Notes under the pieces: model-generated | What the model was told of the DNA's origin: nothing | Databases searched by the model: none | The model's input: only the letters and a program-made list of their open reading frames with translations | Assembly: GCA_963701965.1 (NCBI GenBank) | Contig: OY969695.1 | Location: 2,784,001 to 2,848,000, forward strand | From: an uncultured Gemmatimonadales bacterium | GTDB taxonomy: Bacteria; Gemmatimonadota; Gemmatimonadetes; Gemmatimonadales; Gemmatimonadaceae | Reading direction: 5' to 3' | DNA length: 64,000 bases | Program-made: the position numbers and the translations under genes | Shown here: one piece after another, positions 206 to 37,461 of the stretch | Numbering within the stretch: the first letter of the stretch is position 1 | Layout: every line of letters starts with the position of its first letter

Positions 206-1222
206 ATGCCCGCACCCCGATCACGCGTTCGCACCGCCCTCTGGTTGGCGGCTGGTGCGGGTCTCGCGGTCGCGGTCGCGCTCGTCGTGCGCGAAGGATT
301 CCACGACATACTCGGGCTGCTGGATGTCGCGGGCTGGCGACTGCTGTGGCTCGTGCCCGCGCACGTCGTGCCACTCGCGTGCTTTGGCGCGGCGTGGCTC
401 GCGTTGCTTGAGGGCAGAGACCCGCCAAGTCTCGCCTACGTCACGTGGGGCGCGATCGTGCGCGAAGCGGTGTCGGGATTGTTGCCGGTCGCCCGCATCG
501 GGGGCGAGGTCGTGGGCGTCCGCCTCCTGTCCCGGCGCGGCATTCCGGCGTCCACAGCCGGGGCCAGTGTGGTCGTCGAGCTGACCCTCACGATGGCCGC
601 GCAGGTGGTATTTGCGGCCATCGGGTTGGTCTTGCTCGCCGGGTATCCGACCGTGGGACCGGCCGTCCGCATCGTCACCGTTGGCCTGCTCGTGGGTATC
701 GCCGCCATCGCGGCCTTCGTGGTCGTCGTGCGCCGGTGGGGGCGAGCGATGTTCGCGCTCATGCAACGGGTGATCGGGGCCCTGACCGGAAGCACCGATC
801 GTCTGGGCGGCGATCCGGCGCGGTTCCATGAGGTGCTGCACGCGATGTTCGCCGATCGCGGCGCGCTCACGGCGTGCGGGGTCTGGCAACTGGTTGGCTT
901 CGTGGCCGGCGCGTTCGAGCTGTGGCTCACGTTGCGCCTCCTCGGCCAGCCGGGTGACGTGCGGATGGCCCTCGTCTTGGAGAGCTCCGCGACGGCCGTC
1001 CAGAGCGCGATGTTCATGGTACCCGGCGGCTTGGGGACACAGGAGGGCGGATTTGTCCTCTTTGGCGCGGCGGTCGGCCTCTCGCCTCAAGTGTCGTTGG
1101 CGCTGTCGTTGGCACGCCGCATGCGGCAAGTCGCGCTTGGGCTCCCTGCCCTCCTGTCGTGGTACTGGACGGAACTCCGTTCCGCCCAGTCGACTTCTGT
1201 TCTCGAGACCGACAGGAGATAA
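206..1222 (+). CDS. HpnL-like / lysylphosphatidylglycerol synthase TM-domain membrane protein
   Basis: Multi-TM protein with LLPVARIGGEV and VPGGLGTQEGGF motifs; first gene of the hopanoid operon. Confidence 0.75.
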   Translation: MPAPRSRVRTALWLAAGAGLAVAVALVVREGFHDILGLLDVAGWRLLWLVPAHVVPLACFGAAWLALLEGRDPPSLAYVTWGAIVREAVSGLLPVARIGGEVVGVRLLSRRGIPASTAGASVVVELTLTMAAQVVFAAIGLVLLAGYPTVGPAVRIVTVGLLVGIAAIAAFVVVVRRWGRAMFALMQRVIGALTGSTDRLGGDPARFHEVLHAMFADRGALTACGVWQLVGFVAGAFELWLTLRLLGQPGDVRMALVLESSATAVQSAMFMVPGGLGTQEGGFVLFGAAVGLSPQVSLALSLARRMRQVALGLPALLSWYWTELRSAQSTSVLETDRR

Positions 1223-2280
1223 TGACTACTCGCGCCGCAGACAGACCACGAGACGCAGCGCCGGGCGCGGCGAACGGCAGGGAGTTGCAGGACCGACTCC
1301 TACCGGGCGTTTCGCGCACGTTTGCGCTGACGATCCCGCAACTTCCGGGCGCGCTCCGCCCGGTCGTGACCAACGCGTACCTGCTCTGCCGGACGGCGGA
1401 CACGATCGAAGACGAAGTGGCGTTGTCCCCCGAACAAAAGCAGGAGTTCTCGGACCGGTTCATCGAGGTCGTGGCCGGGCGCGCGTCGGCGGAGGCGTTC
1501 GCGCGGGATCTCGAGCCGCTGTTGTCGCCGGCGACCCTGGATGCCGAACGGACATTGGTGCGCGAGACCGAGGCGGTCGTGGGTGTCACGGCGGAATTCA
1601 CGCCGCGGCAGCGCGCGGCGCTGGAGCGGTGCGTCCGCATCATGTGCAATGGGATGCCCCGATTTCAGCGCAACGCGGATCTCGGCGGGCTGGCGGACGT
1701 CCGGGAGTTGGACTGTTACTGCTATTACGTTGCCGGGGTGGTCGGCGAGATGTTGACGGAGCTGTTTTGCGCGCATTCACCCGCGATCGAGGCGCGGCGG
1801 GAGCGGTTGGCGCCGTTGGCGACGTCGTTCGGACAAGGGCTGCAGATGACGAACATCATCAAGGACACCTGGGACGACCGGCGGCGGGGCGTGTGTTGGC
1901 TGCCCCGCGATATTTTCGGCCGGCAGGGACTGGAGTTGGAAACGCTCGCTCCGGGCGGCGACACGGGTGCTCTGGCCGCCGCCATGGACGAGATGATCGC
2001 GATCGCGCACGGGCATTTGCGCGACGCGCTTACATATACGTTGACCATTCCCCAACGGGAAACCGGTATCCGGCGTTTTCTGTTGTGGGCCCTCGGGTTG
2101 GCGGTGCTCACGCTTCGGAAAGTCCATCGCAACCCGGCGTTCCTCGCCGGACACAGTGTCAAGGTTTCGCGTCGCACGGTCCGCGGGACGGTCCTCGCGA
2201 CGTCGTTGTGGGTCCGGAATGATTGGGTGCTCACCCGACTGATGCAGCTGGCGACGCACTCACTCCCAAGGCTGTCATGA
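1222..2280 (+). CDS. Squalene/phytoene synthase family, single-enzyme squalene synthase type
   Basis: VSRTFAL, YLLCRTADTIED, YCYYVAGVVG, GLQMTNIIKD motifs; AGGAG RBS; TAATG coupling to upstream gene. Confidence 0.85.
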   Translation: MTTRAADRPRDAAPGAANGRELQDRLLPGVSRTFALTIPQLPGALRPVVTNAYLLCRTADTIEDEVALSPEQKQEFSDRFIEVVAGRASAEAFARDLEPLLSPATLDAERTLVRETEAVVGVTAEFTPRQRAALERCVRIMCNGMPRFQRNADLGGLADVRELDCYCYYVAGVVGEMLTELFCAHSPAIEARRERLAPLATSFGQGLQMTNIIKDTWDDRRRGVCWLPRDIFGRQGLELETLAPGGDTGALAAAMDEMIAIAHGHLRDALTYTLTIPQRETGIRRFLLWALGLAVLTLRKVHRNPAFLAGHSVKVSRRTVRGTVLATSLWVRNDWVLTRLMQLATHSLPRLS

Positions 2281-4235
2281 GCTCAACTCTCGTCAGTGTA
2301 GTCGATGTTCCATTACGGCCCGATCCCGACGCTCTGGAAGCCGCGATCGCCCGGGGGTCCGACGCGCTGAGACAGGCGCAGGCCCGCGACGGGTACTGGC
2401 GGTTCGACCTGGAAGCCGACTGCAGCATCACCGCCGAATACGTCCTCATGATGCACTTCATGGACGAAATCGACGGACCGCTCGAGGGGAAGCTGGCGGC
2501 GCATCTCCGGGCCAAGCAAGAGAAACACGGTGGGTGGGGGCTGTATCCCGGCAGCGACTGCGATCTCAGTTGCTCGGTGAAGGCGTACTATGCGCTCAAG
2601 CTCGCGGGCGACGACGCGAACGCGGAGCACATGGTCCGCGCGCGCAAAGCGATCCTCGCCCGCGGCGGCGCGGCGCGGGCCAATGTGTTCACGCGCATCA
2701 CGCTGGCGCTGTTCGAGCAGATTCCGTGGCGGGGGTGTCCGTTCCTGCCGGTCGAGATCGTGCTCCTGCCGCGCTGGTTCCCGTTCCACCTCACCAAGGT
2801 CTCGTACTGGTCGCGCACCGTGATGGTGCCGCTGGCCATTCTGTGTAGCCTCAAGCGCCGGGCGCGGAATCCGCGGCGCGTGAACGTGCGGGAGCTGTTC
2901 GTCACGTCGCCCGAACTGGAAAAAGAATACTTTCCGGCGCGCTCGACGCTGAGTCGCGCGTTCGCGGCGCTCGATGCGCTGGGGCGGCGGAGCGAACCGC
3001 GCATCCCGGATGCGGCGCGGCGCCGGGCGCTGCTGCGCGCGACCCGTTGGTTCACGGCGCGGCTCAACGGCACGGACGGACTGGGGGGCATCTTCCCCGC
3101 GATGGTCAATGCCTATGAGGCGTTGGCCGCGCTCGGCTACGGCTACGATCACCCGTACCGGGTGCAGGCGCGCGAAGCGCTGCGCAAGCTGCTCGTGGTC
3201 GAGGGCGACAGGGCGTATTGTCAACCGTGCGTGTCGCCCGTGTGGGACACCGCGCTGGCGACGCTCGCGCTCCAGGAGGTCGGCGACCAGGCTTCGACGG
3301 CGTCGGCCGGCCGCGCGCTCGACTGGATGGTCTCCAAGCAGCTCCGCGACGATGAGCCGGGAGATTGGCGGGCGATCCGGCCCGGCGTGCACGGAGGCGG
3401 TTGGGCGTTTCAATTCGCGAATCCGCACTATCCGGATCTCGACGACACCGCCGCGGTCGCGTGGGCGCTTTCGCGCGCCAGTCGGCCGGAACGCTATCGC
3501 CGGTCAATGGCGTCGGCCGTCGAATGGATCGTCGGGATGCAGAGCCGGAATGGCGGCTTCGGCGCGTTCGACGCCGACAACACGGCGCGGTATCTCAATC
3601 AGATCCCGTTCGCCGACCATGGCGCGCTGCTCGATCCGCCGACGAGCAATGTGAGCGCGCGGTGCGCGCTCGCGCTGGCCCGGCACGGACGGCCGGAACA
3701 CCGGTTCGCGTTGACGCGCTGTCTGGCGTTCGTGCGGAGCGAGCAGGAGCCGGCCGGATCCTGGTTCGGACAATGGGGAACGAACTACGTGTATGGCACG
3801 TGGTCGGTGCTCACGGCGCTCGAATTGGCCGGCGGCGCCGCCAATGCGCCGATCATCGCCCGCGCGGCCGCGTGGCTCAAGGCGACGCAGAACCCCGACG
3901 GTGGCTGGGGCGAGGGATGCGCCAGCTACTACGACAATGGCTGCGTCTCCCGTCGCGATCCGAGCACGGCCTGCCAGACGGCATGGGCGGTCCTCGGTCT
4001 GCTGGCGGCCGGGGAGGTCCGGTCGGCCGAAGTGCGCCGCGGCATCGCGTATCTGTTGGCGCGCCAAGACCGGGACGGCGACGGGCTGTGGGATGATCCC
4101 TGGTTCAACGCGCCCGGGTTTCCGCGCGTGTTCTATCTCAAGTATCACGGATACGCGAAGTACTTTCCGCTCTGGGCCCTGGCCCGATATCGCGCGCTGT
4201 CGCCGGGCGCGGTCGAGGAAGGACGTCGGGCGTGA
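2277..4235 (+). CDS. shc: Squalene-hopene cyclase
   Basis: Catalytic DLDDTA, QW-type repeats (QSRNGGFG, QNPDGGWG), C-terminal GFPRVFYLKYHGY; ATGA overlap. Confidence 0.97.
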   Translation: MSSTLVSVVDVPLRPDPDALEAAIARGSDALRQAQARDGYWRFDLEADCSITAEYVLMMHFMDEIDGPLEGKLAAHLRAKQEKHGGWGLYPGSDCDLSCSVKAYYALKLAGDDANAEHMVRARKAILARGGAARANVFTRITLALFEQIPWRGCPFLPVEIVLLPRWFPFHLTKVSYWSRTVMVPLAILCSLKRRARNPRRVNVRELFVTSPELEKEYFPARSTLSRAFAALDALGRRSEPRIPDAARRRALLRATRWFTARLNGTDGLGGIFPAMVNAYEALAALGYGYDHPYRVQAREALRKLLVVEGDRAYCQPCVSPVWDTALATLALQEVGDQASTASAGRALDWMVSKQLRDDEPGDWRAIRPGVHGGGWAFQFANPHYPDLDDTAAVAWALSRASRPERYRRSMASAVEWIVGMQSRNGGFGAFDADNTARYLNQIPFADHGALLDPPTSNVSARCALALARHGRPEHRFALTRCLAFVRSEQEPAGSWFGQWGTNYVYGTWSVLTALELAGGAANAPIIARAAAWLKATQNPDGGWGEGCASYYDNGCVSRRDPSTACQTAWAVLGLLAAGEVRSAEVRRGIAYLLARQDRDGDGLWDDPWFNAPGFPRVFYLKYHGYAKYFPLWALARYRALSPGAVEEGRRA

Positions 4236-4957
4236 CCGCCGCGGAGACGGCGCCGACCGTGGCGACGGTGGGCGTCGTCGCCGCGCTCGCCGCGGAAGCG
4301 CGGTGGCTGGACGGCGTGCGCGGACCGCCGGACTCGCCGCTCCGCGTCCTGGTGAGCGGCGTCGGCGCGCGCGCGGCCCAACGCGCCGCCGAGCGCCTGC
4401 TGGCCGACGGCGCGCGGTCGCTCGTGAGTTGGGGCACCGCCGCTGGACTGCATCCGACGCTCGCCCCGGGCACGTTGCTCATCGCGGACCGCGTGCTGGC
4501 GGACGCCGCCGCGACGACCGCCCTCGAGCCTACCCTGGCGTGGGCCGATCGCTTGGCCACCGCGCTGCAGGGCGTGGTCCCGGTCGCCCGCGGCACGATG
4601 GCGTGCCCGCGCGCCGTGCTGCGGACCGCCGCCGACAAGAGCGCGCTGGCCCGCGCCAGCGGCGCGATCGGCGCCGACATGGAGAGCGCGGCCATCGGAC
4701 GGGTGGCCGAGGCGGCCGGTGTCGCCTGGATCGTCGTGCGCGTCGTGTCCGACGGCTGGGACGCCACGGTGCCCGAGAGCGTCGTCGCCGCGGTCGGCAA
4801 TGACGGCGCGATTCGACTCGGCCGGTTGGCGAGGGCCGTCCTCGCGCGCCCGTCCGACCTGCGGGCGTTTCCCGCGCTCGCCCGCGGTATGCGGGTCGCG
4901 GGACGGACGATGCGCCGGGCGGCGCCAGTGCTCGCCTGCGGCGGGCGGGAAGCGTGA
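4232..4957 (+). CDS. hpnG: Hopanoid-associated nucleoside phosphorylase-like protein
   Basis: [21 protein letters not shown] motifs of the PNP/MTAN fold; directly after shc. Confidence 0.8.
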
Positions 4958-5949
4958 TGAAGGCGCTGGTCACGGGTGCCACCGGGTTCGTTGGCGCGGC
5001 GGTCGCGCGCCGCTTGCGCGAGGCGGGACACGAGGTGCGTGCGCTCGTGCGCCCGCGCGCCGATCGCCACAATGTCGAGGGGCGGGGCATCGAGACGGTC
5101 GAGGGAGACCTGACCGATCGCGCCTCGCTCGCGCGCGCGGTGCGCGGATGTCAGGCGGTCTTTCACGTCGCGGCCGACTATCGGCTCTGGGTTCCGTCGC
5201 CTGCCGCGATGTACGCGGCCAACGTCAAGGGCACACGGTCGGTACTGCAGGCAGCCGGGGAAGCGGGCGTCGAGCGGATCGTCTACACGAGCAGCGTCGC
5301 GACCCTGGGCCTGCGCGCCGACGGCTTACCGGCCGACGAGGAAACCCCGTCGACCCTCGACGACATGATCGGTCACTACAAGCGCTCGAAGTTCCTGGCC
5401 GAGGAAGTCGTGCACACCATGGCCGCCTCCGGTACGCCGGTCGTGATCGTGAATCCCTCGACGCCCATCGGGCCGGGCGATGTGAAACCGACACCGACCG
5501 GCCGCATGATCCGGGATGCCCTGGCGGGCCGCATGCCGGCCTACGTCGATACCGGGCTCAACGTGGTGCACGTCGACGACGTAGCGACAGGGCATCTGCT
5601 CGCGTACGAGCGGGGCCAGATCGGGCGCCGTTACATCTTGGGCGGAACCGATATGACGCTCAAGGAGATTCTGACAGAGTTGGCGCACATTGCCGGCCGC
5701 CGTCCGCCACGGTGGCGGCTGCCGCAGCGGGCCCTGCTCCCCATCGCGTATCTCGCGGAAGGATGGGCGCACGTGAGCGGGCGCGAACCGTTGACCACGG
5801 TGGACGGCGTTCGCTTGTCGGCGAAGCGTATGTACTTTTCGAGTGCGAGGGCGGCACGCGAGCTGGGCTATGGAGGGGCGACGCGCGAACCTCGTCGCGC
5901 GCTCGAGGATGCGGCCGAGTGGTTTCGGGGGGCGAGCGTATGGACCTGA
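4957..5949 (+). CDS. hpnA: Hopanoid-associated NAD-dependent sugar epimerase/dehydratase
   Basis: [30 protein letters not shown] motifs. Confidence 0.88.
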
Positions 5950-6896
5950 TTCTGGCGCAACCCCGTGGCTTCTGTGCGGGCGTCGTTCGCGCGATCGAAA
6001 TCGTCGAGCGCACGTTGGAGCTCCACGGGGCGCCCGTGTATGTCCTGCACGAGATCGTGCACAATCGCCGCGTCGTCGAGGATCTGGAGCAGCGGGGCGC
6101 GATCTTCGTCGAGGAGATGAGTCAGGTGCCAACCGGGGCGATCTTGATCTTCAGTGCCCACGGCGTCGCCCGTAAAGTCGAACACGCCGCCGCGGCCCGT
6201 GGGCTGCGCGTGATCAATGCCACCTGTCCTCTGGTCACCAAAGTCCATCTCCAGGCCCAGCGCTACGCGCGCGAGGGCCGCGAGCTGATCATCGTGGGGC
6301 ACGCTGGCCACATCGAGGTCGCCGGAACTGTCGGCCAGGCGGATGGCCCGGTCCACGTCCTGTGCAGTCCAAGAGAAGTGGATGAGCTCGTCGTGACGGA
6401 TCCGGACCGACTGGCGTACGTGACCCAAACGACCTTGAGCATCGACGACACCCGCGAAGTGGTCGATGCGCTCAAGCGGCGGTTTCCGTCGATCAAGGGC
6501 CCCGGACTCGACGACATCTGCTACGCGACCCAGAACCGGCAAAATGCGGTGCGGGCGCTCGCCGTGCGGGCCCATGTCCTGCTGGTGGTCGGTGCAAGGA
6601 ACAGCTCGAACTCCAACCGGCTTCGTGAAGTCGGGGCGCATCACGGAGTACCTTCCTATCTGATCGAGGAAGCGGGCGATATCGATCCCGCTTGGCTTCC
6701 GACAAACGGCGGGCGGGTGGCGATCACGGCTGGGGCGTCGACGCCGGAGGTGTTGGTGGATCAGGTGATCGAGCGGTTGCGAGGGCTCGGCATCCGATCG
6801 GTGTCGACGATCGATGGGGTGAAGGAAACGACGACTTTTCGGCTGCCGGCGGAGCTCGCGCTCCCGGCGACCGGTGATCTCGAGGAATCGGCCTGA
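5940..6896 (+). CDS. ispH: 4-hydroxy-3-methylbut-2-enyl diphosphate reductase
   Basis: [41 protein letters not shown] motifs. Confidence 0.95.
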
Positions 6897-8032
6897 TGGG
6901 TATTCCGTTTTCGGCGCAGGCGCGCATTGCGCGCTATGTCCTGGGGAAAAAGCTCTCGGGACAGAAGCGCTTCCCGCTCGTGCTCATGCTGGAGCCGCTC
7001 TTCCAGTGCAACCTGGAATGCTCGGGCTGCGGCAAGATCGCGTACTCCAACGACATTCTGCGGCGGCGGCTGACGGTCGACGAGTGTCTGGCCGCGGTCG
7101 ACGAATGCGGCGCACCCGTCGTCGCGATCCCCGGTGGGGAGCCGCTGATCCACAAAGACATGCCGGAGATCGTGGCCAAGATCCTGGCCCGCGGCAAGCT
7201 CGTGTCGCTGTGCACGAACGCGATCCTGCTGGCGAAGCGCCTCGACGAGTTCACGCCGTCCAAGTACCTGATGTTCTCGGTGCATCTGGATGGCATGCAA
7301 GAGCGCCACGACGCGTCGGTGTGTCGGGACGGGGTGTTCGAGAAAGCGGTGACCGCGATCCGGCTGGCGCGGCGGCGCGGGTTCCGCGTCTCGATCAACG
7401 CGACGTTGTTCCAGGGCGAGGATCCCGAGAAGGTCGCGACGTTTCTGGACTTTGTCACGACAGAGTTGGGCGTCGAGGGCATCACGCTGTCGCCAGGGTA
7501 CAGCTACGAGAAGGCGCCGCGCCACGACGTCTTCTTGGGGCGGAACGAGAGCAAGAAGTTGTTCCGCGAGATCTTCAAGCGGGGCAAGGACAAAGGCTGG
7601 CCGTTGACGGACTCGTCGTTGTTCCTCGATTTCCTCGCGGGGAATCAGCCGTACGAATGCACGCCGTGGAGCACGCCGACCCGGAACGTGTTCGGCTGGC
7701 AGAAGCCGTGCTATCTCCTCGTGAACGAGGGGTACGCGCCGTCGTTCCAAGCGCTCATGGACGAGACGGAGTGGGAGCAGTACGGGACCGGCAAGAATCC
7801 CAAGTGCGACAACTGCATGGCGCACTGCGGGTACGAGGGCGCGGCGGTCGATGACGCATTCGCGCATCCGATCAAGGCGATGCTGGTGTCGCTCCGTGGG
7901 CCCAAGACCGAGGGGCCGTTCGCGCCGGATCCCGAGGTGCGCTACGCCCGGCCGGCCGGTCGTCCGCCGTTGACCGTGCTGCCGGCCGAGCCGGGCCAGC
8001 GCGCGGCCCGAGCAAAGGGCAACTCCAACTGA
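6896..8032 (+). CDS. hpnH: Adenosyl-hopene transferase (radical SAM)
   Basis: PLVLMLEPLFQCNLECSGCGK (CxxxCxxC), CTPW, GWQKPCY, CDNCMAHCGYE. Confidence 0.93.
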   Translation: MGIPFSAQARIARYVLGKKLSGQKRFPLVLMLEPLFQCNLECSGCGKIAYSNDILRRRLTVDECLAAVDECGAPVVAIPGGEPLIHKDMPEIVAKILARGKLVSLCTNAILLAKRLDEFTPSKYLMFSVHLDGMQERHDASVCRDGVFEKAVTAIRLARRRGFRVSINATLFQGEDPEKVATFLDFVTTELGVEGITLSPGYSYEKAPRHDVFLGRNESKKLFREIFKRGKDKGWPLTDSSLFLDFLAGNQPYECTPWSTPTRNVFGWQKPCYLLVNEGYAPSFQALMDETEWEQYGTGKNPKCDNCMAHCGYEGAAVDDAFAHPIKAMLVSLRGPKTEGPFAPDPEVRYARPAGRPPLTVLPAEPGQRAARAKGNSN

Positions 8033-9189
8033 CCGCGCCCGGCGCGGCGGCCGCCGCAGCCACGGCGGCCGCGGCGCTGTGGCTCGCGATTCTGCTGGCG
8101 CCGTGGCGGCCGTGGAGCACGGCCGAACGGCTGGATGCCAGCCGCCAACGGAGATCGGGCGGCGACGATCGCCCGGGGGATGATGATCTCTCGCAGGACC
8201 TGGGGGATGTCACGGCGCTGATCCCCGCCCGCGACGAGGGCGCCCTCATCGGGCGCACGGTGTCGGCCCTCGCCGCCCAAGGCATCAGCCGGATCATCGT
8301 GGTCGACGACCAGTCGACGGATGACACCGCCAGCGCGGCCCGTAGTGCCGGTGCCGAGGTTATCCCGGGTGAGCCTCTACCGCCGGACTGGGTCGGTAAA
8401 CTGTGGGCGCTCGAGCAGGGACGTCTGCAGGTGACCACGCCGTTGACACTGCTCGTCGACGCTGATATAGAGCTTCATAAGGGCACTATCAGAGCACTAT
8501 TGCAACAGAAGGCCAGGCGCGGTCGAGTCCAGCTCGTATCGTTGATGGCGGTGCTGGAAATGGACAATGCGTGGGAGAAGCTCCTCATCCCCGCGTTCAT
8601 CTACTTCTTCAAGCTGCTGTATCCGTTCCGCCTGGCCAACGGCAAGACCCGGCTGGTGGCCGCCGCGGCCGGGGGCTGTGTGCTCGTCGAAACGGCGGTG
8701 CTCGCGCGCATTGGCGGGTTTGGCGCGCTCCGCGGCGCCATCATCGACGATTGCACGCTCGCCCGCCGGGTCAAGGATGCTGGAGGCCGCACCTGGATCG
8801 GCCTGACGCACTCGGCGGTGAGCCGGCGCGCGATGCACGGTCTCGCGCCCATCTGGTCGATGGTCGCCCGGTCGGCGTTCGCGCAATTGCGCTATTCGAC
8901 GGCGCTCCTCGTCGCCTGCGTGGCGGTCCTGGCCTTGGCGTTCTGGGTCCCGCCCGCCGGCCTCTTCGTCCCCGCCATGCGCCTGCCTTCGGCGGTCGCG
9001 CTCGTCGCGATGATGACGACGTATCTCCCGGTCCTGCACTTCTACAGGCGTTCCCCCCTCTGGGCGCTGGCCCTGCCGGTCGCCGGAACGTTCTACGTCT
9101 TCATGACCATCACGTCGGCCGTCCGGTACTGGCGCGGCGAGCGGTCCCGGTGGAAAGGACGCGTCTACGCATCTTCCGGGGAGGGATAA
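8029..9189 (+). CDS. Hopene-associated GT2 glycosyltransferase (HpnB-like); probable CTG start
   Basis: Frame reads LWLAILLAPWRPW...ALIPARDEG upstream of the ORF-track start (8260), then VVDDQSTD, WVGKLWAL, DADI, IIDDCTLA, WKGR. Confidence 0.8.
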   Translation: MTAPGAAAAAATAAAALWLAILLAPWRPWSTAERLDASRQRRSGGDDRPGDDDLSQDLGDVTALIPARDEGALIGRTVSALAAQGISRIIVVDDQSTDDTASAARSAGAEVIPGEPLPPDWVGKLWALEQGRLQVTTPLTLLVDADIELHKGTIRALLQQKARRGRVQLVSLMAVLEMDNAWEKLLIPAFIYFFKLLYPFRLANGKTRLVAAAAGGCVLVETAVLARIGGFGALRGAIIDDCTLARRVKDAGGRTWIGLTHSAVSRRAMHGLAPIWSMVARSAFAQLRYSTALLVACVAVLALAFWVPPAGLFVPAMRLPSAVALVAMMTTYLPVLHFYRRSPLWALALPVAGTFYVFMTITSAVRYWRGERSRWKGRVYASSGEG

Positions 9190-11326: not shown

Positions 11327-11331
11327 TGCGA

Positions 11332-11363
11332 AAAGTCTCCGAGGAGAAATCCTCGGAGACTTT
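11332..11363. terminator. Perfect 14-bp hairpin, probably a bidirectional terminator for ada and tRNA cassette 1
   Basis: AAAGTCTCCGAGGA-GAAA-TCCTCGGAGACTTT. Confidence 0.8.
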
Positions 11364-11384
11364 CACTACGTGGTGGAAATTAAC

Positions 11385-11402
11385 CACGCCGGCTTGACAA
11401 GT
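11385..11402. repeat. Inverted copy (17/18 nt) of the anticodon-arm region of tRNA cassette 1
   Basis: CACGCCGGCTTGACAAGT versus the tRNA's CACACCGGCTTGACAAGT (reverse complement of 11505-11522). Confidence 0.9.
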
Positions 11403-11461
11403 GCCACGAATGTATGCAATCGCACCGGCGCGGTCAACCGGTAGTTTGGCGCTAACTAGCG

Positions 11462-11545
11462 TGCCCGGAGCGGGACTCGAACCCGCACGACCTCGCGGTC
11501 GCCGACTTGTCAAGCCGGTGTGTCTACCAATTCCACCATCCGGGC
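11462..11545 (-). tRNA. Type II tRNA with tRNA-Leu body but anticodon GAC (Val); CCA not encoded
   Basis: GCCCGGA/TCCGGGC acceptor, A73, D arm GTGGAATTGGTAGACAC, anticodon arm CCGGC-TT GAC AA-GTCGG, long V arm GACC-GCGA-GGTC, T arm GCGGG-TTCGAGT-CCCGC. Confidence 0.9.
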
Positions 11546-11714
11546 ACTCTTCGCGATGGACGGAATTGGATGTTGCGACACGAGCTTCGACTGTCGTTCG
11601 CCACTAGCTAGCGGTGGCGAATCTCGCGCTACGTGAGGCGCGCGTCGTCATCGTTACACTTCGTACATCATCGGGAACGCGGAACTCGACGCCCTGACGC
11701 GGGATAAGAGCCGC

Positions 11715-20491: not shown

Positions 20492-20530
20492 GGCTAGCGG
20501 CTCGAAGTGGAGATATTCGAGTCGCTAGTT
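20492..20530 (+). other. 15-bp hairpin in the leader of tRNA cassette 2
   Basis: GGCTAGCGGCTCGAA-9 nt-TTCGAGTCGCTAGTT (three G-U pairs), enclosed by CGCCAC/GTGGCG. Confidence 0.6.
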
Positions 20531-20588
20531 AGTGGCGTGCAATGAGTGAGCCCGTGTCGCAGCATCCAGTTTCATCCGCGTGTAGAGT

Positions 20589-20672
20589 GCCCGGATGGTG
20601 GAATTGGTAGACACGGCAAACTCGCAAATTGCCGACCGTAAGGTCGTGCGGGTTCGAATCCCGCTCCGGGCA
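20589..20672 (+). tRNA. Type II tRNA with tRNA-Leu body but anticodon CGC (Ala); A31-A39 mismatch; CCA not encoded
   Basis: Acceptor and D arm identical to 11462-11545; anticodon arm GCAAA-CT CGC AA-ATTGC; V arm GACC-GTAA-GGTC; T arm GCGGG-TTCGAAT-CCCGC; A73. Confidence 0.88.
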
Positions 20673-20726
20673 CGCTAGCTAGCGCCACATTGCGCGTCGC
20701 TTCCTGGTTTCATAGATTCAAGGCAC

Positions 20727-20742
20727 TTGCGAGTTTGCCGTG
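20727..20742. repeat. Perfect 16-nt inverted copy of the anticodon-arm region of tRNA cassette 2
   Basis: TTGCGAGTTTGCCGTG is the reverse complement of CACGGCAAACTCGCAA (20612-20627). Confidence 0.92.
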
Positions 20743-20743
20743 G

Positions 20744-20776
20744 CGAGCCCCGGGGAGAGATCCTCGGGGTTCGTTT
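20744..20776 (+). terminator. 13-bp hairpin with GAGA loop, terminator-like
   Basis: CGAGCCCCGGGGA-GAGA-TCCTCGGGGTTCG then TTT; core resembles the 11332-11363 hairpin. Confidence 0.7.
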
Positions 20777-22419: not shown

Positions 22420-25153
22420 GCGGTTGCAGGCCGGTCTCGGCTCGGCCTATACGATCGAGCGCGAGATCGGGCGCGGCGGCATGGCGACCGTCTTTCTCGC
22501 CCAGGATCGGAAGCACGACCGCCCCGTGGCGGTCAAGGTGCTGCACGCGCATCTCGCGGCATCCCGAGGTCCGGAGCGGTTTCGGCGCGAGATCACGCTC
22601 GCAGCCCGTCTGCAGCATCCCCACATCCTCGCCGTCCACGATTCCGGCGAGAGTCCCGACGGGCTCCTGTGGTTCACCATGCCCTTCGTCGACGGTGAGA
22701 CCCTGCGCGAACGGCTCATGCGGCAGCGGCAGCTGCCGGTCGACGAGGCGTTGCGCATTGCGTCCGACGTGGCCGGCGCGCTGGAGTATGCGCACGCGCG
22801 CGGCATCATCCATCGCGACATCAAGCCCGAGAACATCCTGCTGTCGAGCTCCCATGCTCTGGTGGCCGACTTCGGCATCGCGCGGCCAGTCGCGGAGGAG
22901 GGCGACCCCGCGCTGACCGAGATCGGGCTGGCGGTTGGGACGCCGGCCTACATGAGCCCCGAGCAGGCCCACGGCGAGCGCACGCTCGATGGCCGCACCG
23001 ACATCTACAGCCTCGGCACGGTGCTGTACGAGATGCTGGCCGGCGAGCCGCCGTTCACGGGACCGTCGGCGCGCACGGCGAAGATGCTGAGCGGCAGCGC
23101 GCCCTCCGTGCGGCGCCGGCGGCCAACCGTCAGCGAATCGGTCGATCTCACCCTGCAGAAATCGCTGGCGCCGGTGCCGGCCGACCGGTTCGCGTCGGCC
23201 GGGGAGTTCGCCGAGACACTGGCCGCGGGCGGCAGCGGGCGGCACACGGGGCGATACAGCAGCGGGACCGCCATCGGCGGCCGTCCGCGGATCGGACTGG
23301 CCGCCGCGGCCGCGGCCGCGATCGCGCTGGTCATCGTGTTCGTGGCCGTGGCCGGACGTTGGCGCGGCGCCGCGCACGCCGGATCGATCGGCGTGCTCGC
23401 GGTGCTGCCCTTCGACAACTTCGGCGCGGGCAGCGATGAGTATTTCGCCGAGGGGCTGACCGACGAGCTGCGCGCGAAACTGTCGGCGATCGGCGGGCTT
23501 CGCGTCATCGCGACCGGGAGCTCGGAGCAGTATCGCCACAGCCCGAAATCCCAGACCGAGATCGCCCGCGAGCTCGGCGCGCGGTATTTGCTCGTGGGCA
23601 GCGTGCGGTGGGAGCGACTCGCCGACGGCAAGAGTCGGGTGCGGGTGAGCCCGGAGTTGGTCGATGTGACGTCGCCGGCGCCGACGACGACGTGGAAGCA
23701 GGCGTTCGACGCGGCCGACCTCGAGGATGTGTTCACGGTCCAGGCGAACATCGCGACCAATGTCGCGGCCAAGCTCGGCGTGGCGCTGGGTGGCGCGGTG
23801 CCGAAGGTCATCACCACGCGGCCGACGGAGAACCAGGCGGCGTACAACGCGTATCTCCAGGGGTTGGCGCTGTTGCCGCGGACGATCACGGCGGGCACGA
23901 CGACACCCTCGGCCGGTGTCGCGCGGCAGGCGGCCGCGGCGTTCCGCCAAGCGGTGTCGCTCGATCCGCGGTTCGCGGATGCGTGGGCGCGGCTGTCGTT
24001 GGCCGACTCGCGGCTCTATCTCGCCGAGCCGTCGCCGGCGGTGTTGGCCGAGTGCCAGGCCGCGGCCGAGCGGGCGTTGGCCATCGCGCCCACGCTGGCC
24101 GATGGGCATCAGGCGATGGGCGCGTACTACGCCACGGGGCCGGGCGATTATGCGCGCGCGCTGGCCGAGGATTCCATTGGTCTCGCCGCCGAGCCGGACA
24201 ACGTCGATCTCTTGACGTCGGCGGCGGCCAACGAGATCAACGTCGGACGATTGGATCCCGCGATTGCCCGTCTGCGCCGCGCGTTGGCGCTCGATCCGCG
24301 GTCGGTGTTGACGGCGACGCGGTTGGCGTCGGCGCTGCTCCGCCGGGGCGATTTCGCCGGCGCGCGCGACGCGGCGGATCGGGGGCTGGCGGTCGATCCG
24401 ACGAGTCTGGCGCTGTTGGAAGCCGACGCGACGGCGCGCCGCGCGCAGGGCGATCTCGCCGGGGCGCGCGCCGTGCTCGATCGGGCGCTCGCGGTCGCGC
24501 CGGACAATCTCGAGTTGATCGAGCAGAAGGTCATCACGTATCTCATGGCGGGGGATCTCGCGGGCGCGCGCGGGGTCGTGCGCGCGGCGTCGGCGCTCGT
24601 GGACACGCGGGCGTTGCTGGCGTACATTGGCGGGGTGTACGACCTGTACTGGGTGTTGGACGACGCCGATCAGCGGACGCTGCTCTCGGTGCGGCCGGAA
24701 ACGTTTACGGGGGCTGGTGCTGGGAACCGGCGGGATTGGGCGCTGGCGCTGGCGCACACCGCGTGGTTGCGGGGGGACGCGGCGAAGGCGCGGGCGTATG
24801 CCGATACCGCGCTCATCGCCAGCGGCGCGGACGACGGAAGTCCCAGCGCGCAGGATATGGCGCTGCGAGGTGTCGCGTATGCGTATCTCGGGAAGGCGGC
24901 CGAGGCGAAGGCCGCCGGTCGGCGCGCGACGGCGTTCGATCCCATCGCGACGGATCGGCAGAATGGGCCGTACACGCAACTGTTACTGGCGCGCATCCTC
25001 GTGCTGGCCGGCGAGCCGGATAGCGCGGCCGCGGCGCTGGCGGTCGCGGCAGGGGCGAAAGGCTTCTATCTCACGCCTGCGTGGTTGGCGATCGATCCGA
25101 CCTGGAAGGGCTTGCCGCGAGTGCCCTCGAGTCTGCAGGTTCCGGCCAACTAA
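22397..25153 (+). CDS. Ser/Thr protein kinase with TM helix, TolB-N-like domain and TPR repeats
   Basis: GRGGMATV, HRDIKPEN, DFG, GTPAYMSPEQ, LAVLPF, repeated LALDP helices. Confidence 0.92.
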   Translation: MASDNLRERLQAGLGSAYTIEREIGRGGMATVFLAQDRKHDRPVAVKVLHAHLAASRGPERFRREITLAARLQHPHILAVHDSGESPDGLLWFTMPFVDGETLRERLMRQRQLPVDEALRIASDVAGALEYAHARGIIHRDIKPENILLSSSHALVADFGIARPVAEEGDPALTEIGLAVGTPAYMSPEQAHGERTLDGRTDIYSLGTVLYEMLAGEPPFTGPSARTAKMLSGSAPSVRRRRPTVSESVDLTLQKSLAPVPADRFASAGEFAETLAAGGSGRHTGRYSSGTAIGGRPRIGLAAAAAAAIALVIVFVAVAGRWRGAAHAGSIGVLAVLPFDNFGAGSDEYFAEGLTDELRAKLSAIGGLRVIATGSSEQYRHSPKSQTEIARELGARYLLVGSVRWERLADGKSRVRVSPELVDVTSPAPTTTWKQAFDAADLEDVFTVQANIATNVAAKLGVALGGAVPKVITTRPTENQAAYNAYLQGLALLPRTITAGTTTPSAGVARQAAAAFRQAVSLDPRFADAWARLSLADSRLYLAEPSPAVLAECQAAAERALAIAPTLADGHQAMGAYYATGPGDYARALAEDSIGLAAEPDNVDLLTSAAANEINVGRLDPAIARLRRALALDPRSVLTATRLASALLRRGDFAGARDAADRGLAVDPTSLALLEADATARRAQGDLAGARAVLDRALAVAPDNLELIEQKVITYLMAGDLAGARGVVRAASALVDTRALLAYIGGVYDLYWVLDDADQRTLLSVRPETFTGAGAGNRRDWALALAHTAWLRGDAAKARAYADTALIASGADDGSPSAQDMALRGVAYAYLGKAAEAKAAGRRATAFDPIATDRQNGPYTQLLLARILVLAGEPDSAAAALAVAAGAKGFYLTPAWLAIDPTWKGLPRVPSSLQVPAN

Positions 25154-35760: not shown

Positions 35761-37461
35761 CTACTTTTGCGCGCGCAGCTCATCAGCCGCGCTCAGAGCG
35801 TAGCCGATTTCCTTGGACAAAGCCTTCGCCTGTTCGGTTGCGCTGGTGACGGTTCCGATGCCGGCATCCACTCCGGCCGACCGCAACCGTAGCAAATCGA
35901 GCGCCAGGTTCTGCAGGGCGAGCGACGCCCGTTCCATCTGGCCCAAAAGTTCCTGACGTGGTACGGCTAGTTGGGATCGTTGTGTTTCAGGCGTCTCGAC
36001 GTCGATCCGGTGCAGCGCGGTGGCCAGGGACGCGATCTGATCCACCAACGCGTCGGCGGTCGGTAGGACGTCGGGGATCGCCCCACCTTTGGGTGTAATG
36101 GTCTTGAGGCGGTCGATATGATCCAGCACCGCCGCATGGTCGCCTGTGGCGCGGCGGACCGCGGGACCGTACGGGCCGGCCAACACCTCCGGCGCGACGA
36201 GCCGTGACGCCACACGTTGGCCCGAAGGCAACTTCCCGCGCAACCCCAGGTGCCCGCCGCGCAGCATGGCGACAGGGTTCACTCCGTCCGCCCACAGCGA
36301 GCCCGCGCTTCGCACCAGGCCGAAACCCCACCAGATCGTCACCCAGGGGAACCGAATGTCGCCCATGTGGTGGATGCCCGCCATGACATTGATGGTTGCC
36401 ATGACGGCGTTGAAGCCCAACCACGATACCGTGGCCCGCCGAAAGCGGTTGACGCGGAGTTCCAGGCCTTCGGGATCGGTCCGGTCCCGAAGGCGGACGG
36501 GCTTCTCGATCGTCGCCGCCAGTTCCCGCAGTCGGGCGGCATTTTGGAGCGTGGCCGCCACGTTGGTCATCGGCGGCGGTGGCGGCGTGGGCGCGGCCGG
36601 CGGCGGGGATCCCGCTGGGGCATCTAGGGCTTGGACGACCGCTTGCGCGTCCTGAAAGCGGTCCCCGGGGTTTTTTTCCAGGAGCCGCATGATGATCGCC
36701 GCGAGGTCCGCGGGCACGTCCCCGCGCACGTCCCGCAACGGGCGCGGCCGCTCGGTCAGGTGCTTCACGAGCAGCGCGGCGGTGTTTGTGCCCGCGAACG
36801 GCGGCGTCCCGGCCAGCGCGTAGTACATCACGACGCCGAGCGAGTACAGGTCGCTGCGGCCGTCGACCGCCCGCTCGCCGGTACACTGCTCGGGTGACAT
36901 GTAGGCCGGGGTGCCGATCGCCACGCCCGTCGCCGTGAGCTTGGTGCCGGTCGTATCGTCCGCCGCGCGCGCGATCCCAAAGTCCGTCACCACGGCGCGC
37001 CCGTCGTCCAATGCGATCAAGATGTTGTCGGGCTTGATGTCCCGATGGATCACTCCCCGCGCATGGGCGTAGGCCAGCGCGTCGGCCACCTGGCGCAAGA
37101 TGGTGCGCGCCTCGGACACCGCGAGCCGGCCGCGCGCGGTGATACGGGCGCCCAGGGTCTCTCCATCGATGAACGCCATGATGAAGTAGACCAGGTTCTC
37201 TTTTTCGTCGACCGTGTAGATGGGGACGATGTTCGGGTGCGAGAGCTGCGCGGCCATCTCGGCTTCGCGCAGAAACCGGGACCGGATCTCGTCGCGATAC
37301 GCCAGTTCCGGGGGCAGGAGCTTGACGGCGACGGTGCGCTTGAGGCGCACGTCCTTGGCGCGATAGACGATCCCCATTCCGCCGCGGCCCACCTCGTCCT
37401 CGAGCACGAAGCCCGGGGCGAGCACGTGCTCCAGACGTTCTTTGAGGGCAGGATCTTTCAT
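35761..37461 (-). CDS. Ser/Thr protein kinase with 2TM and coiled C-terminus
   Basis: GRGGMGIV, HRDIKPDN, DFG, GTPAYMSPEQ. Confidence 0.92.
   Translation of the reverse strand: MKDPALKERLEHVLAPGFVLEDEVGRGGMGIVYRAKDVRLKRTVAVKLLPPELAYRDEIRSRFLREAEMAAQLSHPNIVPIYTVDEKENLVYFIMAFIDGETLGARITARGRLAVSEARTILRQVADALAYAHARGVIHRDIKPDNILIALDDGRAVVTDFGIARAADDTTGTKLTATGVAIGTPAYMSPEQCTGERAVDGRSDLYSLGVVMYYALAGTPPFAGTNTAALLVKHLTERPRPLRDVRGDVPADLAAIIMRLLEKNPGDRFQDAQAVVQALDAPAGSPPPAAPTPPPPPMTNVAATLQNAARLRELAATIEKPVRLRDRTDPEGLELRVNRFRRATVSWLGFNAVMATINVMAGIHHMGDIRFPWVTIWWGFGLVRSAGSLWADGVNPVAMLRGGHLGLRGKLPSGQRVASRLVAPEVLAGPYGPAVRRATGDHAAVLDHIDRLKTITPKGGAIPDVLPTADALVDQIASLATALHRIDVETPETQRSQLAVPRQELLGQMERASLALQNLALDLLRLRSAGVDAGIGTVTSATEQAKALSKEIGYALSAADELRAQK

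Follow-up and report, generated by a model that had tools for sequence, protein, structure and literature searches.

Leucine-type tRNAs with foreign anticodons and co-varying antisense elements in Gemmatimonadota: candidate RNA-only toxin-antitoxin units

The window, that is, the whole 64-kb stretch of Gemmatimonadales DNA analysed here, carries two tRNA genes with bodies of the tRNA-Leu type and with anticodons for valine and alanine. Each is followed on the same strand by a segment complementary to its own anticodon arm, and arm and segment change together between relatives. The anatomy of these units, their leucine identity bases, the complementarity and its co-variation can be read directly from the DNA. 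We consider it probable that the units are RNA-only toxin-antitoxin systems, in which a leucine-charged missense tRNA would act as the toxin and an antisense RNA as the antitoxin.

Two leucine-type tRNA genes with valine and alanine anticodons

ARAGORN and Rfam found two tRNA genes in the window, called Val-GAC and Ala-CGC. A third such gene, with anticodon CGC, lies at C1:2559322-2559405 of the same genome (G000, one contig of 5.12 Mb). The parts of the two window units are the following.

20524..20588, + strand: 5' leader of the Ala-CGC unit, conserved between copies and predicted by folding to pair along the D arm, the anticodon arm and with the trailer
20589-20672, + strand: tRNA with tRNA-Leu body and Ala anticodon CGC (ARAGORN and Rfam)
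20615..20632, + strand: hypervariable anticodon arm (positions 26-43) of the Ala-CGC tRNA
20673..20687, + strand: 3' trailer of the Ala-CGC unit, predicted to close the helix with the start of the leader
20690..20718, + strand: predicted antisense-RNA promoter of the Ala-CGC unit, from alignment to other copies (-35 at 20690-20695, 17 nt spacer, -10 at 20713-20718; scored too low to pass the consensus scan)
20725..20742, + strand: antisense segment against the unit's own arm, 16 nt perfect
20746..20776, + strand: GC-rich hairpin and T-rich tail, predicted terminator of an antisense RNA of ~52 nt
11546..11612, - strand: 5' leader of the Val-GAC unit
11462-11545, - strand: tRNA with tRNA-Leu body and Val anticodon GAC (ARAGORN and Rfam)
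11447..11461, - strand: 3' trailer of the Val-GAC unit
11409..11437, - strand: predicted antisense-RNA promoter of the Val-GAC unit (9/12 consensus matches, 17 nt spacer)
11389..11402, - strand: antisense segment against the unit's own arm, 14 nt perfect
11370..11378, - strand: second antisense segment, against the 5' strand of the D arm
11327..11363, - strand: hairpin and T run, predicted terminator of an antisense RNA of ~77 nt

A whole unit spans ~260 nt, in the order tRNA, sigma70-like promoter, arm antisense (14-18 nt) and terminator-like hairpin, all on the same strand. Similarity between the two window copies continues beyond the tRNA for ~65 nt on the 5' side and 15 nt on the 3' side. 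In strict promoter and terminator scans of the window the Val-GAC antisense promoter was the sole element to pass (1 found vs 0.2 expected in shuffles), the terminators of both units and the Ala-CGC promoter failing, and the consensus scan found no promoter of the tRNA itself for either unit.

The preliminary description had reported that the two tRNAs differ at 14 of 84 nt and that 11 of these differences fall in the 18-nt anticodon arm (20615-20632). This was reproduced, with differences at linear positions 27, 28, 30-33, 35, 36, 40, 42 and 44 in the arm and at 51, 52 (variable-arm loop) and 70 (T loop) outside it; under a hypergeometric model, 11 or more of the 14 differences would land in these 18 of the 84 sites with P = 4.7e-7. 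The stem swaps it named, C27-G43 vs G27-C43 and G29-C41 vs A29-U41, are present in both sequences, and the Ala-CGC arm additionally has an A31/A39 mismatch. In 145 family tRNA pairs whose bodies differ at no more than 5 sites, the arm showed 0.36 differences per site and the body 0.059, compared to 0.078 and 0.058 in 45 such pairs of true tRNA-Leu, the pairs not being independent in either set. The concentration of change in the arm thus goes beyond normal tRNA behaviour.

The copies are neither confined to these two nor uniformly variable: in a family of at least 83 distinct homologues the arm is where variation is highest, which agrees with the earlier claim of a hypervariable arm under selection and supports the view that these are not decaying pseudogenes. 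The picture of a frozen scaffold holds between recent copies and fails across the family, where acceptor positions 3, 4, 6 and 7 vary by 1.1-1.6 bits. The idea of the arm as a swappable module is not supported. Its stems are unlike those of host tRNA-Val(GAC) and tRNA-Ala(CGC), so that copying from these host genes is ruled out, and orthologues at one site change by stepwise substitution. A phage source is rejected likewise, as phage matches are restricted to the body; in the best phage matches of the GAC copy the body alone is covered, and 6 of the 8 matches listed carry a tRNA-Leu annotation. What the preliminary description missed is the source of the variation as the alignments present it, a downstream antisense element that co-varies with the arm.

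Identity elements and host decoding

The body of the Ala-CGC gene has A15-U48, G18G19, A20a, a long variable arm and A73, without G3-U70 and without encoded CCA. Both window tRNAs have the D loop, Levitt pair, discriminator and long variable arm of the tRNA-Leu type and neither has G3-U70, so the earlier notion of a tRNA-Leu-like body is borne out by identity bases and variable arm alike. In the family, A15, G18G19, A20a and U48 occur in 83/83 tRNAs (partly built into the search patterns) and A73 in 80. In the available text of PMC9976931, leucylation in E. coli is defined by A73, A15-U48, G18G19 and A20a, and the anticodon arm is dispensable. By analogy with these E. coli rules LeuRS would leucylate the odd tRNAs, which, given their Leu identity bases and a dispensable arm, would be expected to deliver leucine at codons for Ala, Val, Asp and other amino acids.

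The GAC and CGC anticodons, neither of them a Leu anticodon, show that these are not ordinary tRNA-Leu genes. They differ from tRNA-Ala in having C3-G70 rather than G3-U70, and from tRNA-Val in length, with 84 nt including a 14 nt variable arm vs 74 nt for the host tRNA-Val genes. The tRNA-Val determinants A35, C36 and A73 are present in the GAC copy, which could therefore be valylated, and GGU copies could be recognised by ThrRS; both points speak against the toxin-antitoxin reading.

These main ValRS determinants of the GAC copy are what speaks for extra cognate adaptors, each charged with the amino acid of its anticodon. We regard this reading, taken together with codon reassignment (GCG or GUC as leucine), as very improbable. 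G3-U70 is absent in 83/83 family tRNAs, 40 of which have Ala anticodons (CGC, in 27/83, is the commonest anticodon of the family). The host already has ordinary tRNA-Ala(CGC), tRNA-Val(GAC) and five Leu isoacceptors, so the odd tRNAs are not needed for decoding. Reassignment itself is ruled out by alignments of 9 radical SAM and 4 gluconolactonase-like orthologues (one of the 13 from the unpublished genome G039), in which GCG aligns to Ala in 148/220 cases, with Leu outside the top six, and GTC to Val in 127/181, with Leu in 12/181; moreover, 17 anticodons cannot all be reassigned. Insertion of leucine at these codons would be harmful, the host decoding GCG as Ala and GTC as Val and using GCG more often than any other codon (7.8% of the 6658 codons counted in 13 window genes). 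A degenerate second tRNA-Val(GAC)-like sequence lies at G000:C1:1809504-1809573, 25 kb from the intact gene.

G000 has one LeuRS gene, two RNase E/G genes and a CCA/poly(A) polymerase-family gene. RNase III is the usual partner of antisense antitoxins. An RNase III domain was found in 0/5 Gemmatimonadota carriers (G000, G001, G003, G007, G070) vs 8/14 control genomes, and the lineage may lack the enzyme; for the toxin-antitoxin reading this is a point against.

The antisense element and its co-variation with the anticodon arm

Each of the three odd tRNAs of G000 has a perfect complement of its own arm ~55-70 nt downstream (16, 14 and 14 nt), cross-pairs reaching 7-9 nt, and in antisense score the three outrank every other one of the 62 ARAGORN genes in the genome. 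Predicted co-folding gains were -10.7, -11.6 and -19.2 kcal/mol for the cognate pairs, compared to 0 to -7.5 kcal/mol for cross pairs and 0 to -5.9 kcal/mol for four ordinary host tRNAs. In the family, a set chosen by pairing score, positions 34-36 and 38 form Watson-Crick pairs with the small RNA of the same unit in 83/83, the cognate score averages 16.1 vs 7.3, and the own partner is best or tied in 73/83. The loop is perfectly paired, and G-U pairs are tolerated in the stems. A promoter-like site stands at the right distance in 78/83 units, with the loose pattern also matching 29/87 Leu flanks somewhere within 100 nt, and a hairpin with T tail follows the antisense in 79/82. Between tRNA and antisense no terminator-like hairpin occurs in 79/83 units, so that read-through would carry the antisense in cis.

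Stem positions 29-31 and 39-41 vary by 1.5-1.9 bits in the family vs 0.3-0.7 bits in 87 distinct Leu genes. Among five close copies (those of four congeners at the radical SAM site plus the Val copy), two-sided changes were seen in 8/17 arm:antisense pairs, a value reached in 0/500 shuffles and compared to 0-1 in slid registers; as related sequences can beat shuffles, the slid-register control weighs more. Upstream of the radical SAM gene the anticodon CGC is kept in the four congeners, yet there are four different stems, each with a matching antisense. A second syntenic site has CGC, CGC, CTC and CAC in four congeners, and a third has GGA and GGC. A unit tree from which arm and antisense were left out requires 37 or more anticodon changes (minimum 16; the bootstrap is not fully settled).

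Some loci hold spare cassettes against other arms: L168, L211, L222, L033, L032 and G000:C1:2559576-2559591, the last directed against a variant CGC arm and located upstream of copy 3. The loci L033 and L211 are 90% identical over 865 nt and have the anticodons CGC and TGG, respectively, each with a second complete cassette, anti-AGG in L033 and anti-CGC in L211. In G003 (92% complete) no tRNA of this pattern was found with AGG, the anticodon targeted by its spare cassette. The joint change of arm and antisense at single sites, together with the spare cassettes, argues for selection on the arm as a recognition code rather than just on the codon read, with spare antidotes accumulating. At L069 (GGT), 3 kb from L068 on the same contig, the leader still complements a GAC loop and the antisense matches GGT; this discord is, as the two sequences read, the trace of a recent anticodon switch.

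That the units are neutral tRNA-derived repeats or pseudogenes, and the antisense a relic of inverted duplication homogenised by gene conversion, is hardly credible to us. The antisense RNA does resemble an inverted tRNA 5' half, an anti-D segment being kept in 13/83 antisense elements, and a conflict of isotype and anticodon often marks decaying repeats (available text of PMC8450103). Against decay, the acceptor stem is predicted to be intact in 83/83 mature tRNAs, promoter and terminator are conserved, and a pairing that is perfect in the loop with G-U tolerated in stems is what is expected of selected RNA pairing.

Distribution of the family and members without antisense

The family was collected by a DNA search of 100 relatives, 20 further regions, a pattern scan of the phylum, 185,579 species genomes, three viral scans and one metagenome scan. 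Loci were parsed up to L284 with duplicates dropped, and a pairing score of at least 11 was taken as an antisense pass. At least 139 Leu-like tRNAs with a non-Leu anticodon and at least 98 with a Leu anticodon were obtained, of which 85/139 and 0/98 pass. Without repeats, the 85 passing loci come to 83 tRNAs, and the 17 anticodons among them belong to Ala, Asp, Val, Arg, Glu, Thr, Gly, Ser and Pro. The fairest comparison comes from the arm-open, anticodon-blind scan of the 185,579 species genomes, which gave 74 matches: all 16 with a non-Leu anticodon have the antisense (score at least 14), compared to 0/58 with a Leu anticodon, and the 16 are all titled Gemmatimonadaceae, Gemmatimonadales or Longimicrobiales. 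Arm-antisense is present in 39/40 distinct non-Leu loci of Gemmatimonadota genomes, compared to 0/98 true tRNA-Leu. The 40th, L034, has a variable-arm antisense that is marginal by score alone, since Leu controls reach 15.5 in the wider antisense search.

Against the toxin-antitoxin reading stand the 54 non-Leu loci that fail. Five of these are truncated; among the 49 with full flanks, 7 have an antisense elsewhere (on the variable-arm side in L034, L156, L187 and L196, on the opposite strand in L198, upstream in L191 and L277) and 42 have none that we found. Odd Leu-like tRNAs can thus exist without such a partner, and many of the 42 look like phage tRNAs or misparsed Leu genes. Leu-type bodies with the stop-reading anticodons CUA, UCA and UUA and without antisense occur in viral (L151, L155, L157, L160, L164) and metagenomic (L197, L202, L254, L274, L281) sequences and are possible natural suppressors. 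A Leu-like long-arm tRNA with the Gln anticodon UUG, also without antisense, is found on six related phage contigs of 94-141 kb (L314, L316-L319, L325). In metagenomic L209, L241, L230, L283 and others a Leu-like body comes with an anticodon for Pro (UGG), Asp or His, and a clear antisense is lacking; L209 and L241 have in common a partly complementary segment downstream and may form another subtype. A34 anticodons are rare in bacteria; AGG, AGC and ACC occur in the members L042, L088, L093, L191 and L221.

Copies in six congeners number 3, 2, 0, 3, 3 and 2, a patchy and multicopy pattern, and the Ala unit occupies the same site in four congeners. Of 401 genomes in the loose phylum scan, 23 matched, with 11/26 matches of family type, and as the scan missed two of the three G000 copies, 23/401 is no prevalence figure. 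For the Val unit no junction of a clean insertion was readable, as four congeners have a different upstream gene. Searches for mobile DNA gave no plasmid match, no full-unit phage match and one viral contig among the 14, 0 and 13 matches of the viral scans; that the units are not enriched on mobile DNA counts against a toxin-antitoxin function. The only viral member, L156 / L327:195-400 (record G453), lies right at the end of a record of 20.5 kb (30% complete) and may be host DNA. The divergent member L165 adjoins groEL, whose named close relatives mostly carry Acidobacteriota labels, and also Verrucomicrobiae and Dormibacteraeota; the design therefore probably extends beyond Gemmatimonadota.

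Leader, precursor folding and the mature tRNA

Leader, tRNA and trailer are predicted to form a rod 9-13 kcal/mol more stable than the cloverleaf form. The Ala-CGC precursor folds at -76.3 kcal/mol (z -4.2; 0/200 shuffles as stable), 12.6 kcal/mol below its cloverleaf-constrained fold, and the Val-GAC precursor at -80.0 kcal/mol (z -4.5), 9.3 kcal/mol below. Leader pairing with z < -2 is seen in 63% of the 83 family units vs 5% of 87 Leu genes. Against leader specificity, the own leader is best for the own arm in 4/83 only, and loss of the acceptor stem in the precursor is predicted for 59/83 family members and also for 40/87 Leu controls, a poor separation. In these comparisons the leader signal is real on average, but little allele-specific, and weaker evidence than the antisense. 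An always-perfect partner of the anticodon loop would look like a blocking antidote, and a self-locked precursor like a stored toxin. As to a peptide toxin, no SD-led ORF of at least 15 codons was found in the three own-genome units, and none at a shared position across the 83.

Some features of the mature tRNA could point away from decoding. C33 replaces U33 in 15/83, a 31-39 mismatch is present in 10/83, CCA is encoded in 2/83, and some allo-tRNAs are charged or toxic without decoding (available text of PMC5389517). They might fit a non-decoding mimic, a decoy or inhibitor of anticodon nucleases, LeuRS or EF-Tu under antisense control, with the loop as a recognition tag. We find this quite improbable, considering that the 7-nt loop and purine 37 are kept (partly built into the patterns), that the triplets are biased to abundant codons, that most host tRNAs likewise lack encoded CCA in a genome with a CCA/poly(A) polymerase-family gene, and that a decoy has no obvious need of an allele-specific antidote. 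Of the three roles offered in the preliminary description, poisoning of translation is retained as the likeliest, and a decoy for anticodon nucleases or a variable display is less favoured.

Genomic neighbourhood

Both window copies adjoin genes of DNA-damage type, the Val unit lying tail-to-tail with an Ada-type methyltransferase gene and the Ala unit near a radical SAM/HhH protein gene. The neighbours differ from locus to locus, and no dedicated synthetase was present among those scanned. A cis-regulator of a neighbouring gene is ruled out by the variation of neighbours and orientation and by the tail-to-tail arrangement of the Val unit; 9 radical SAM orthologues in other genera (one from the unpublished genome G039) lack the unit.

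The chromosomal location, the one site kept in four congeners and the adjoining DNA-damage-type genes would suit a mistranslation that is regulated and beneficial. In that case the charged missense tRNA, braked by its antisense as before, would be released in small amounts under stress, making the proteome more diverse or preparing stress responses, and would be neither lethal nor addictive; in E. coli, carbenicillin resistance rose with the mistranslating tRNAProX (available text of PMC10404621). We hold this to be unlikely. A useful substitution should be conserved, yet one syntenic site has CGC, CTC and CAC in four congeners; stems change even where the anticodon does not, neighbours vary between loci, and spare cassettes against absent arms fit immunity.

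Several further observations concern the surroundings of the units. One unit site is tail-to-tail with a Ro60 (TROVE/vWA) gene in two congeners (L008:51-1382, L043). G000 has at C1 ~2559000-2559170 a short C-terminal Ro60 remnant only, with no TROVE match elsewhere. A Y RNA/Ro60 link was rejected, TROVE being present in 2/10 carriers and not in G000, and no Y RNA match being found in 7 loci (E up to 1). An HD_4-domain gene lies directly upstream of the spare cassette and copy 3 (L328:4647-5333; G000:C1 ~2559646-2560332). In the window, positions 828-9189 hold a hopanoid biosynthesis cluster (squalene-hopene cyclase, LytB/IspH, radical SAM with DUF3463, glycosyltransferase). A 168 nt inverted similarity (70%) between 22673-22840 and 37018-37185, its first arm inside a Ser/Thr kinase-TPR gene, probably reflects paralogous kinase domains.

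Relation to known systems

In the literature searched, which was largely open access, no description of an antisense-controlled missense tRNA was found. The window tRNAs share with allo-tRNAs a long variable arm, an anticodon-blind identity and many anticodons (Mukai et al. 2017, PMC5389517; review PMC7609411; available texts). Allo-tRNAs showed missense activity and lethality in E. coli, and their authors suspected a link to toxin-antitoxin systems (available texts of PMC5389517 and PMC7609411). They have an 8/4 or 9/3 branch and Ser/Ala identity and come from Acidobacteria (same text of PMC5389517), unlike the window tRNAs with their 7/5 cloverleaf and Leu identity; with A73, C2-G71 and no G3-U70 these depart from the Ser/Ala identity of allo-tRNAs. 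Allo-tRNAs lie near protein toxin-antitoxin genes, whereas here an RNA partner is aimed at the tRNA, and the main text of PMC5389517 has no occurrence of 'antisense', 'complementary' or 'Gemmatimonad'.

The tRNAProX family (tRNAProA/ProN/ProT; Schuntermann et al. 2023, PMC10404621, available text) is similar in comprising natural bacterial missense tRNAs of sporadic occurrence, with anticodon switching and misannotation by anticodon, and is toxic in E. coli. Its members have Pro identity (C1:G72), an adjacent ProRSx gene and 3 anticodons and belong to Streptomyces/Kitasatospora, and the available text of PMC10404621 has no occurrence of 'antisense' or 'toxin'. Unlike tRNAProX, the present tRNAs have G1-C72, a Leu body, no synthetase (proSx) nearby, 17 anticodons and a dedicated antisense. 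Judged by sequence, the anatomy is neither that of allo-tRNA nor that of tRNAProX.

Of the type VIII toxin-antitoxin systems, SdsR-RyeA has in SdsR an mRNA-targeting sRNA with an overlapping antisense gene, and in CreTA, CreT sequesters a rare tRNA and is repressed under CRISPR guidance. Here, unlike in either, a tRNA is the putative toxin, and its anticodon loop is the target of an allele-specific, non-overlapping antisense that would serve as antitoxin. Type I toxin-antitoxin systems have a latent primary transcript closed by 5'-3' pairing, a separate short antisense RNA and multicopy, allele-specific chromosomal paralogues. The units resemble them in RNA logic, with a predicted latent transcript, a short antisense RNA and multicopy allele-specific pairs, and differ in that no small protein toxin ORF and no RNase III were found. 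The type I systems hok/Sok, tisB/IstR-1 and aapA/IsoA are named in PMC11951105, in whose available text both partners of type VIII are RNA, the antitoxin being a small RNA transcribed from a separate promoter. An RNA antitoxin complementary to the toxin RNA, with a promoter of its own, is found here at the sequence level, and the toxicity of the RNA is argued by analogy to allo-tRNA and tRNAProX. By the nature of their parts the units, type I-like in RNA logic, would count as type VIII.

Proposed mechanism and meaning

From this arrangement we infer transcription, processing and charging of the tRNA, its toxicity, and a differential stability of the two RNAs. The primary transcript is predicted to be a rod, its leader paired with the D and anticodon arms, which would form a latent store of toxin and would need processing by RNase P or RNase E/G, then CCA addition, before acting. 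LeuRS is predicted to load leucine onto the released tRNA, which would insert it at Ala (GCG) or Val (GUC/GUU) codons. A small antisense RNA, predicted to be made from its own promoter, would pair with the anticodon loop and block decoding, presumably sterically and not by RNase III, which was not found in these genomes. If transcription stopped or the locus were lost, the antisense RNA would disappear before the tRNA, which would then poison translation, with addiction, dormancy or abortive infection as the outcome. The arm would diversify because new arms escape resident antisense RNAs, and spare cassettes would confer immunity to other variants.

Chances seem to us evenly balanced that the units form a new class of protein-free selfish or defence module. 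In such a class the toxin would be the mature missense tRNA and the antitoxin an anticodon-capping antisense RNA, leader-locked precursors would store the toxin, anticodon and antidote would evolve in a joint race, and spare antidotes would serve as immunity memory; its spread would reach past Gemmatimonadota (a likely Acidobacteriota contig, AT-rich contigs and one viral contig). Cells may also rely on the same design to cope with other natural missense tRNAs.

On this model, many genes that now carry the annotation tRNA-Ala, -Val, -Asp, -Glu and others in these genomes would be misannotated. The unit would depend on no host enzymes other than universal ones, and its orthogonal anticodon versions, at least 17 in number, might be used as switchable tools for codon-specific mistranslation. 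The model gives a testable answer to the question, open from the allo-tRNA and tRNAProX papers, of how hosts survive mistranslating tRNAs and why their anticodons vary. If it is true, a tRNA itself can be the toxin of a toxin-antitoxin pair, and bacteria can silence one tRNA species by a dedicated antisense RNA, neither of which we found described in the literature searched.
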